Below the pieces are notes generated by a model. It saw only the letters and a program-made list of their open reading frames with translations, ran no database searches and was not told the origin of the DNA. DNA of 64,000 nt, taken from NCBI RefSeq assembly GCF_058153355.1, contig NZ_CM177019.1; one strand, written 5' to 3'. Within the stretch, counting starts at the first letter, position 1; the number at the start of each line of letters is the position of its first letter. This document shows, piece after piece, positions 24,110-26,914 of the stretch. A program made the translations under genes and the position numbers.

Positions 24110-26648
24110 AGCTGGCTTGTTAGCGGTTCAGCGTCTGGTGCGAGTCTGGAAGTTGATAATGGTCAGATTACCAATATTAATACTGATGTTGCTTACGATG
24201 CCTACCTGGTTGGGTGGTATGGCACTGGAGTGCTTAATATTTTGGCTGGCGGTAATGCCTCCTTAACCACTATTACTACCAGCGTCATTGGTGGTAATGA
24301 GGACTCAGAGGGCACCGTTAACGTTTTGGGTGGCACCTGGCGATTGTATGATAGCGGAAATAATGCAAGGCCTTTAAATGTGGGTCAATCCGGAACGGGG
24401 ACGCTGAATATTAAACAGAAGGGTCATGTTGACGGAGGATATTTAAGGATAGGTTCTTCGACAGGAGGCGTCGGGACGGTCAATGTTGAAGGAGAGGACT
24501 CGGTTCTGACGACCGAATTATTCGAAATAGGGAGTTACGGTACAGGCTCATTAAATATTACGGATAAGGGTTACGTCACGAGTTCAATAGTCGCCATTGT
24601 AGGATATCAGGCGAACAGTAATGGTAAGGTTGTCGTTGAAAAGGGTGGCGAGTGGCTAATAAAAAATAATGATTCCTCAATTGAATTTCAAATTGGTAAT
24701 CAAGGGACGGGCGAAGCAACTATTCGCGATGGGGGGCTAATTACGGCTGAAAATACGATTATCGGTGGCAACCTCACCGGTATCGGAACCCTGAATGTGC
24801 AGGATCAAGACTCTGTCATCACGGTACGCAGACTCTATATATTACTTTTTTGGGCGATAAAGCAAGCGGTATCGGCACACTGAACCTGATGGATGCGACA
24901 TCATCGTTCGATACTGTAGGTATCAATGTCGGTAATTTTGGTAGCGGCATCGTAAATGTCAGTAATGGTGCCACCCTTAATTCAACGGGCTATGGATTTA
25001 TCGGAGGAAATGCCTCCGGTAAGGGGATAGTTAATATTTCAACGGATAGTCTCTGGAATTTAAAAACGTCATCTACTAACGCCCAATTGCTACAGGTCGG
25101 TGTATTAGGCACGGGTGAACTGAATATTACCACCGGAGGTATAGTTAAAGCGCGTGATACACAGATAGCTCTCAATGACAAAAGTAAGGGCGACGTGCGG
25201 GTAGATGGGCAGAACTCTCTTCTTGAAACATTCAATATGAACGTAGGGACGACTGGCACAGGTACGTTAACCCTGACGAATAACGGCACGCTGAATGTCG
25301 AAGGTGGAGAAGTTTACTTAGGTGTTTTTGAGCCTGCCGTAGGAACGCTAAACATTGGTGCTGCTCACGGTGAGGTGGCGGCAGATGCCGGGTTTATCAC
25401 CAATGCGACGAAAGTGGAGTTTGGTCTTGGCGAAGGCGTTTTTGTCTTTAATCATACCAATAACAGTGATGCCGGCTACCAGGTCGATATGCTGATTACG
25501 GGTGACGATAAAGACGGAAAAGTGATGCATGATGCAGGCCATACGGTGTTCAATGCAGGGAATACTTATAGCGGCAAAACGCTGGTCAATGACGGCCTCC
25601 TGACTATTGCGTCACATACGGCAGATGGGGTAACAGGCATGGGTTCGAGTGAAGTAACCATTGCAAGCCCCGGTACGCTCGACATTCTCGCATCAACGAA
25701 CAGCGCAGGAGATTACACGCTGACCAATGCACTCAAAGGCGATGGCTTGAATTCAATATGAACGTAGGGACGACTGGCACAGGTACGTTAACCCTGACGA
25801 ATAACGGCACGCTGAATGTCGAAGGTGGAGAAGTTTACTTAGGTGTTTTTGAGCCTGCCGTAGGAACGCTAAACATTGGTGCTGCTCACGGTGAGGTGGC
25901 GGCAGATGCCGGGTTTATCACCAATGCGACGAAAGTGGAGTTTGGTCTTGGCGAAGGCGTTTTTGTCTTTAATCATACCAATAACAGTGATGCCGGCTAC
26001 CAGGTCGATATGCTGATTACGGGTGACGATAAAGACGGAAAAGTGATGCATGATGCAGGCCATACGGTGTTCAATGCAGGGAATACTTATAGCGGCAAAA
26101 CGCTGGTCAATGACGGCCTCCTGACTATTGCGTCACATACGGCAGATGGGGTAACAGGCATGGGTTCGAGTGAAGTAACCATTGCAAGCCCCGGTACGCT
26201 CGACATTCTCGCATCAACGAACAGCGCAGGAGATTACACGCTGACCAATGCACTCAAAGGCGATGGCTTGATGCGAGTGCAGCTGTCATCCTTCGACAAA
26301 ATGTTTGGCTTTACCCATGCAACAGGAACTGAATTCGCCGGTGTTGCCCAACTGAAAGACAGTACCTTCACACTGGAACGCGACAACACCGCTGCGCTTA
26401 CTCACGCGATGCTTCAGTCTGACAGTGAAAATACCACATCGGTAAAAGTGGGAGAGCAATCCATTGGTGGACTAGCCATGAATGGCGGTACGCTCACTTT
26501 CGATACGGATATACCTGCTGCGACGCTTGCGGAGGGATATATCAGCGTCGATACACTGGTTGTCGGCGCGGGTGACTACACCTGGAAAGGCCGTAACTAT
26601 CAGGTAAACGGGACGGGCGACGTGCTTTCCGCAAGTGCAGATGCATGA
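24110..26648 (+). pseudogene. yneO: Decayed autotransporter/AIDA-like adhesin passenger region (yneO-like)
   Basis: Reading frame opens right after a stop with no start codon or signal peptide; repetitive GTGTLNI / GSGxxNV beta-helix passenger repeats across three ORF fragments; one frameshift near 24820, a second at the 521-bp duplication junction; no C-terminal beta-barrel. Confidence 0.7.
25230..26271 (+). repeat. Perfect tandem duplication, 2 x 521 bp, inside the adhesin pseudogene
   Basis: 25230-25750 and 25751-26271 encode identical peptides in both the sense and antisense six-frame ORFs; 521 is not a multiple of 3, so the junction shifts the frame. Confidence 0.9.
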
Positions 26649-26802
26649 AATCCTGAGTGACTTTGCCAGAATGATTCCGGCAGCACTGGATAACGTGAAG
26701 ACTTCATTACCGACAGATTTTCCGGAGAACGTGGTGACGGCAGTTGAAACCAATGTGTTGAGGTTGCACCGTCGGTTAAGCCGAGAATACGGTATTAAGT
26801 AA
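26608..26802 (+). pseudogene. hipA: Probable 3' remnant of the hipA toxin-kinase gene (last ~65 codons)
   Basis: Short frame ..ATCFPQVQMHEILSDFARMIPAALDNVKTSLPTDFPENVVTAVETNVLRLHRRLSREYGIK* at the map position where hipBA is expected; matches my recollection of the HipA C-terminus. No hipB or hipA kinase core is present in the window. Confidence 0.45.
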
Positions 26803-26914
26803 GATATGGGGTTTGGCCGTTGTTAATGAGCAGGACAATCATTACCGCCAACGACTGGATTTTCCCTTGGTTTATGTTGGTGCGCATAATGTATATTATG
26901 TTAAATAGCCTACG

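Follow-up and report, generated by a model that had tools for sequence, protein, structure and literature searches.

The window (the whole 64,000-nucleotide stretch of DNA that we analyzed) includes a part of the E. coli chromosome where the gene order is lsrA-lsrR-lsrK-autotransporter-[hipB-hipA]-dif-F9 fimbrial operon. It is syntenic with two reference loci, L001 and L003, and the synteny from lsrK to the F9 operon supports the initial annotation, which had expected hipA at this map position. We chose the references by comparing this region with 5,426 complete E. coli genomes. L001 (E. coli 2012C-4221, NZ_CP027437) is hipBA-positive, but its adhesin gene is already truncated. L002 (E. coli Z0117EC0005, NZ_CP098223) is the nearest genome overall across the region and is hipBA-negative. 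L003 (E. coli 24A16CRGN010) has an intact autotransporter (adhesin) gene of 5,421 bp, hipB, hipA, the same island downstream, and an intact F9 fimbrial operon. At the left of this order, the longest open reading frame for lsrA (19630-21252) has a GTG start and encodes 540 amino acids, versus 1,536 bp (~511 amino acids) as annotated in relatives; the extra length is probably not real and just reflects an in-frame start further upstream.

What is left of hipA lies at 26626..26802 on the + strand. These 177 bp comprise codons 383-440 and the TAA stop, as identified from a match to HipA in the PDB and a DNA match to the hipA of L001. The frame at 26608-26802 translates as VTIR, a stop, TGRATCFPQVQMHEILSDFARMIPAALDNVKTSLPTDFPENVVTAVETNVLRLHRRLSREYGIK, and the final stop. 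Within it, FPQVQMHEIL...REYGIK aligns end to end and without gaps to residues 383-440 of HipA (E = 7e-31, 54/58 identical; 3dnt, 3hzi, 3tpd, 2wiu, and 5k98), and this ungapped alignment was found with every solved E. coli HipA chain. So the peptide is indeed the C terminus of HipA, as the initial annotation had proposed. That annotation also described a fusion of the adhesin to about 65 codons of hipA, with the hipA DNA starting at 26608. The fusion by deletion stands, but the hipA part is shorter (58 codons and the stop, or 177 bp), and its first codon is 26626-26628. The residues ahead of FPQ (TGRATC) are adhesin DNA read in another frame, and a TAA at 26605-26607 ends the hipA frame upstream of the remnant.

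The remnant differs from the HipA of K-12 by four substitutions (E384Q, S423T, G429R, and S439I). Three of the four also occur in E. coli 2012C-4221, whose intact HipA is identical to the remnant at 57 of 58 residues; at the DNA level, the remnant is 99.5% identical to this hipA over 205 bp. At the junction, 52 bp of hipA sequence, including the codon for Q384, are 100% identical to the intact hipA of many strains. Because Q384 is found in many intact hipA genes, it is a standing allele and not a sign of decay. Judged from these comparisons, the remnant is without decay of its own.

In HipA, the Pfam domains Couple_hipA and HipA_C span residues 6-103 and 149-401, respectively; the remnant retains the last 19 residues of the HipA_C model and the C-terminal tail, and 87% of the toxin gene is gone. 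With no kinase core, the remnant cannot be a kinase. Its only candidate starts are a GTG at 26635 and an ATG at 26641, and a Shine-Dalgarno sequence is absent at both. A scan around the remnant for promoters and terminators found no promoter-like or terminator-like site on the + strand, and an exact-protein look-up with the 55-amino-acid open reading frame found no identical record. The remnant is a non-functional hipA pseudogene fragment and not a member of a functional HipBA system: the orthologous position and the identity of the surviving piece are those of HipBA, while the kinase domains, hipB, and the operators are missing.

The missing parts are not elsewhere in the window. When we compared HipA to the whole 64 kb with tblastn, the sole match was the remnant (HipA residues 377-440, E = 3e-32). 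The best tblastn match for HipB across the 64 kb had E = 6, and blastn with hipBA DNA across the 64 kb found nothing beyond the remnant. These searches confirm that both hipB and the HipA kinase core are absent, as had been claimed, and an intact hipBA nearby, which the initial annotation named as evidence against its reading, is not found within the 64 kb. In L003, hipB is at 7589-7855, inside the segment that the window has lost, and four HipB operators (TATCC-N8-GGATA) lie upstream of hipB at 7454-7567; the corresponding locus in the window has none. The lone match to this motif in the window (at 39638) is within an usher gene, and L003 has that match too. Overall, the hipBA type II toxin-antitoxin locus is very probably a non-functional scar in the replication-terminus region of this E. 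coli chromosome.

To the left of the scar is the remnant of an ECSE_1600-family autotransporter gene (24122..26627, + strand; blastn against L003), of the same type as the K-12 adhesin pseudogene yneO/ydeK. The window is collinear with L003 at 98–99.9% identity apart from five events, and four of these affect the adhesin gene. A 606-bp deletion (L003 1513-2118) takes the promoter and the first 165 nucleotides of the gene. A 531-bp deletion (L003 2837-3367) is internal to the gene. A repeat search identified a tandem duplication of 521 bp (25230..26271, + strand), in which 25230-25750 and 25751-26271 are identical at 521/521 positions; both copies map to L003 3759-4279. The fourth event is the 4,365-bp deletion that removes hipBA. 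The adhesin frame is disrupted by the 531-bp deletion and the duplication, and the deleted 3' part encoded the C-terminal 912 codons, in which Pfam detects three domains: an autochaperone (AC_1), a pertactin-like domain (Pertactin), and a beta-barrel translocator (Autotransporter). The window's autotransporter gene is a pseudogene, as no single frame encodes a signal peptide, passenger, and translocator. We noticed that four rearrangements within 2.5 kb beside dif (of 606, 531, 521, and 4,365 bp) are unusually dense, unless some of them are due to mis-assembly.

We mapped the large deletion against three references (L001, L002, and L003). Relative to L003, the closest intact relative, blastn shows a single gap of 4,365 bp (L003 4636-9000); relative to L001, the same deletion spans 6252-8795. 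Lost in the gap are 2,739 bp at the 3' end of the adhesin gene, the promoter of hipBA, including all four HipB operators, the hipB gene, and nucleotides 1-1146 of hipA (codons 1-382). Three-way alignments place the junction at 26626..26627, and the blastn segments abut and overlap at 26626/26627. A "TT" is common to the adhesin side (GACGTGCTT followed by ATCG) and the hipA side (GAAATT followed by TCCG), which gives 2 nucleotides of microhomology. The junction sequence itself (GACGTGCTT followed by TCCGCAAG) contains neither filler DNA nor an IS scar, and the right end of the deletion is 253 bp short of dif. A chimeric open reading frame (25758..26648, + strand) follows the adhesin frame across the junction into hipA DNA, where it is out of frame, and stops at a TGA (26646-26648). 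The initial annotation was correct that the adhesin reading frame continues to 26648 and overlaps the hipA frame, and the mapping against a hipBA-positive reference, which it had proposed, agrees with its view that a deletion fused the autotransporter to the 3' end of hipA.

This exact junction was present in 0 of 5,426 complete E. coli genomes (at 80% query coverage or above), had no match among GTDB species representatives or JGI metagenome contigs, and the chimeric open reading frame has no identical product on record in public assemblies. The window's junction is apparently private. Together with the remnant's lack of decay of its own, this suggests that the deletion is recent or private to a lineage.

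We propose that the deletion occurred in one step, by RecA-independent illegitimate recombination at the "TT", which would be either slippage or end-joining at the microhomology. The proposal is drawn from one genome. A RecA-independent route is suggested by three similar small rearrangements elsewhere in the adhesin remnant: their junctions have 1–3 nucleotides of microhomology each, and all four events look like illegitimate, homology-independent ones.

We also considered that the locus was eroded stepwise, so that a smaller lesion in hipA or hipB came first (as in the O157-type alleles, which are without hipB and the 5' part of hipA) and was later enlarged to 4,365 bp. The region has been hit repeatedly, given the three further independent rearrangements in the adhesin remnant, and alleles of intermediate size exist in other lineages. 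Furthermore, HipA is stable, and losing its gene together with hipB should set the toxin free for a time (PMC5638614); a strain whose toxin was already inactive would lose the locus more easily. However, the join is clean and two-ended, with no trace of an earlier breakpoint, and the closest relatives, L003 (intact) and L002 (with a different deletion), do not share an intermediate. We consider stepwise erosion to be unlikely, and a one-step deletion remains our preferred explanation.

Immediately downstream of the hipA remnant is a 76-bp spacer (26803..26878), which is conserved in the intact references and has two substitutions that are private to the window. Next is dif, the XerCD chromosome-dimer resolution site (26879..26906, + strand), which begins 76 bp past the hipA stop. 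The sequence there, GGTGCGCATAATGTATATTATGTTAAAT, is a 28/28 match to the canonical core of E. coli dif. The XerC arm, the 6-bp central region, and the XerD arm all match the E. coli consensus, and the site is intact. No other site in the window matches with 3 or fewer mismatches (0 are expected by chance), and an identical dif is found at the same place relative to hipA in 7–8 other loci (L002-L008 and L010). Given the perfect dif, the window spans the chromosome-dimer resolution site, or the replication terminus. All three KOPS motifs in the window are oriented toward dif (the one to its left is on the + strand, the two to its right are on the - strand), but with n = 3 this is at most consistent with a terminus. 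GC skew across the 64 kb is dominated by gene orientation and is uninformative about the terminus at this scale. The initial annotation made no mention of dif, which is the most important neighbor of the remnant; hipA has been termed "adjacent" to dif (Sinha et al. 2017, PMC5638614).

Between lineages of E. coli, homology stops right at the final base of dif, which thus seems to be a fixed point between two variable zones. Abutting its XerD arm is a variable island of 6.76 kb (26907..33666), which lies outside of the deletion and is also present in the hipBA-positive L003. The island contains a frameshifted hypothetical gene, a truncated antitoxin of the MbcA/ParS/Xre type, and small fragments of HTH, IS481, and hydrolase genes. 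It also encodes a 400-amino-acid protein with leucine-rich repeats similar to those of SspH2, SlrP, and IpaH (28610-29812, - strand), which is LRR effector-like, and a 654-amino-acid ankyrin-repeat protein (30945-32909). The counterpart of the leucine-rich-repeat protein in L003 has 508 amino acids and is annotated as a NEL-type E3 ligase. In place of the island, O157-type genomes have a 481-bp yneL-like stretch. We considered that the island might be a Xer-integrated element with a second dif-like flank, but this is not supported, as the window has no such site with 4 or fewer arm mismatches. The IpaH-like repeats of the leucine-rich-repeat protein also led us to consider that the DNA came from Shigella, but this is not supported either, because the island is common to ordinary E. 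coli and the 64 kb contain just one IS element. This element, of the IS66 family, interrupts the usher gene of the F9 fimbrial operon (35980-38445, with the transposase at 36846-38417) and is flanked by an 8-bp target duplication (GAATTTAT). It inactivates the F9 operon, which is intact in the closest relative, L003, and is the fifth event relative to L003.

Across the complete genomes of E. coli, at least 80% of hipBA (1,589 bp) is present in 4,564 of 5,426 (84%), so that ~16% do not have this much of it; some match is found in 5,411 of 5,426. The literature describes hipBA as "conserved" within a variable context ahead of the F9 operon (PMC7232551). Our literature search found no published survey of natural hipBA truncations. 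Nevertheless, NCBI's pipeline already labels such fragments as incomplete hipA, so the phenomenon is known. The window's allele is an ordinary instance of a known and recurrent gene decay, which has other breakpoints in many E. coli.

Nearly all of the partial matches that we sampled keep the 3' end of hipBA (521-1589, 524-1589, 662-1589, 1187-1589, 1529-1589, and 1548-1589, in query coordinates). We mapped six other deletions that come from the adhesin side, and these keep hipA from nucleotide 255 (strain 144), 396 (O157 180-PT54), 921 (PAR), 1263 (RS571), 1272 (Z0117EC0005), or 1282 (BCE049); the window's allele keeps hipA from nucleotide 1147. The left ends can be distant: the deletion in PAR starts as far off as yneE, and the one in BCE049 starts near marC. 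An exact dif is present in 6/6 of these alleles. With the window's allele included, at least seven mapped deletions end inside hipA yet spare dif.

Two other alleles have a different form. L009 (SC477) has an internal deletion of hipA and keeps a 50-bp tail and 27/28 of dif. L010 (LSC52, NZ_CM137002) keeps hipB and 162 bp of hipA, and the remainder of hipA is replaced by an island that ends at dif. As L010 lost hipA from the dif side, the erosion is not strictly one-sided. In this urine isolate (L010 3404-6033), a gene for a TIR-domain protein and an ISNCY transposase come after the hipA piece and extend to dif, which leaves an orphan hipB beside a TcpC-like island. Separately, the position of dif in L001 (9049-9394) is occupied by two hybrid dif-like sites with about 318 bp between them. 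The first is GGTGCGCATAA-TGTGATACGCG-TTATGTTGAAA, with an 11-nucleotide spacer, and the second is AGTGCGTATAA-GATATA-TTATGTTAAAT. The pair resembles a tiny insertion of the Xer-integrated (IMEX-like) type.

Why does a tail of hipA stay behind? Deletions from the adhesin side could extend only up to dif if the loss of dif is costly or counter-selected. Counter-selection against deletions that reach dif would explain why the adhesin-side alleles that we examined keep a hipA tail of variable length; the idea is based on a handful of mapped alleles and on ranges of matches, and not on a phylogenetically controlled count. A bolder reading is that hipBA is located beside dif as a sentinel, which arrests cells whose terminus DNA is broken or degraded, and that its recurrent loss is not random decay. 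The deletions would then reflect either a dif-proximal hotspot for illegitimate recombination, due to breakage of the terminus, or selection to escape self-arrest in some lineages. We find this doubtful, and somewhat more so than stepwise erosion. If it were true, the strain with the window's allele would be a natural test genotype that is dif-positive and hipBA-negative.

Another explanation is that the tail of hipA is kept because it is functional, either as a protein of 54–55 amino acids (open reading frame 26635-26802) or as a cis element for dif, for XerCD/FtsK, or for terminating transcription toward dif. Some 3' sequence of hipA is present in 5,411/5,426 genomes, and the 281-bp block of hipA tail and dif, which is complete in K-12, is at least 80% present in 5,111/5,426. 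However, other alleles retain just 42–61 bp of hipA, so no defined open reading frame is conserved, and residues 383-440 are almost wholly outside of the catalytic HipA_C model. A functional tail is also at odds with the + strand's lack of promoter-like sites, terminator-like sites, and Shine-Dalgarno sequences, and chromosomal dif requires only its 28-bp core plus FtsK. A function for the tail seems very improbable. We give still less credence to an assembly artefact, in which the repeat-rich passenger region of the adhesin was mis-joined and hipBA is really present: the perfect 521-bp tandem duplication and the two internal gaps nearby are features that short-read assemblers can make, and the junction is in no other public sequence that we searched, but the join is between unrelated, non-repeated sequences with 2 nucleotides in common, which the collapse of a repeat does not make, and many finished genomes have genuine deletions of this kind in their annotation.

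When the terminus DNA is degraded, the hipBA locus is lost, HipA is released, and the cell is arrested (Sinha et al. 2017, PMC5638614). If both dif and hipA are deleted, then cells without terminus DNA go on growing and dividing (PMC5638614). With neither the HipA kinase nor HipB, the window's strain should not undergo HipA-mediated growth arrest, including after degradation of the terminus, if published K-12 genetics apply to it. Dimer resolution at dif is expected to be unaffected. The initial annotation had suggested that loss of hipBA would bear on persister biology, but this argument is weak, as ~16% of complete genomes are without at least 80% of hipBA and the model of a toxin-antitoxin cascade leading to persistence has been refuted or heavily revised (PMC7167474). 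Given that revision, losing wild-type hipBA should not produce a clear persister phenotype, and such a phenotype in this strain is speculative. Loss of HipA-dependent arrest after terminus breakage appears to be better supported than an effect on persistence.

By itself, the allele is of little weight, as one more strain-specific pseudogenization of a dispensable toxin-antitoxin locus. It corrects the annotation, in that hipA is only a fragment, the adhesin gene is a pseudogene, and dif is now marked, and it predicts a strain that lacks HipA-mediated growth arrest. Taken with the other alleles, it points to a repeatedly eroded zone of a few hundred bases on the left side of dif, with dif as the fixed limit. 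Only two aspects are of mild interest, namely the position beside dif and the existence of a set of independent alleles.

Among known loci, the hipA pseudogenes of O157:H7-type genomes (A8L39_RS30680 in 180-PT54 and C9E68_RS14385 in strain 144) resemble the window's in that an ECSE_1600 pseudogene is joined to a 3' piece of hipA, hipB is gone, and an exact dif lies just downstream. Their breakpoints differ: they keep hipA from nucleotide 255 or 396 instead of 1147, and so retain most of HipA_C. To the right of dif, they have a short yneL-type stretch, whereas the window has the 6.8-kb island.

L002 and the window share the island to the right of dif, and the allele of L002 likewise has a deletion from the adhesin gene into hipA and an intact dif. 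But its deletion is 2,517 bp (L003 6609-9125), so that 2 kb more of the adhesin gene is kept and only 52 bp of hipA. The flanks of L002 are 99.96% identical to L003 upstream of the gap and 98.5% identical downstream. As L002 is nearly identical to L003 in its flanks and both of its endpoints are unlike the window's, it represents an independent event, and neither allele can be derived from the other.

Compared to the intact hipBA of K-12 or 24A16CRGN010 (structures 3dnt, 3hzi, and 5k98), the window is without the antitoxin, the operators, and 87% of the toxin gene. Engineered K-12 strains with deletions of hipBA or of dif-hipA (PMC5638614) have similarly lost HipA and HipB at the terminus. Unlike those strains, the window's allele is natural, it keeps dif, and half of the neighboring adhesin gene is also gone.
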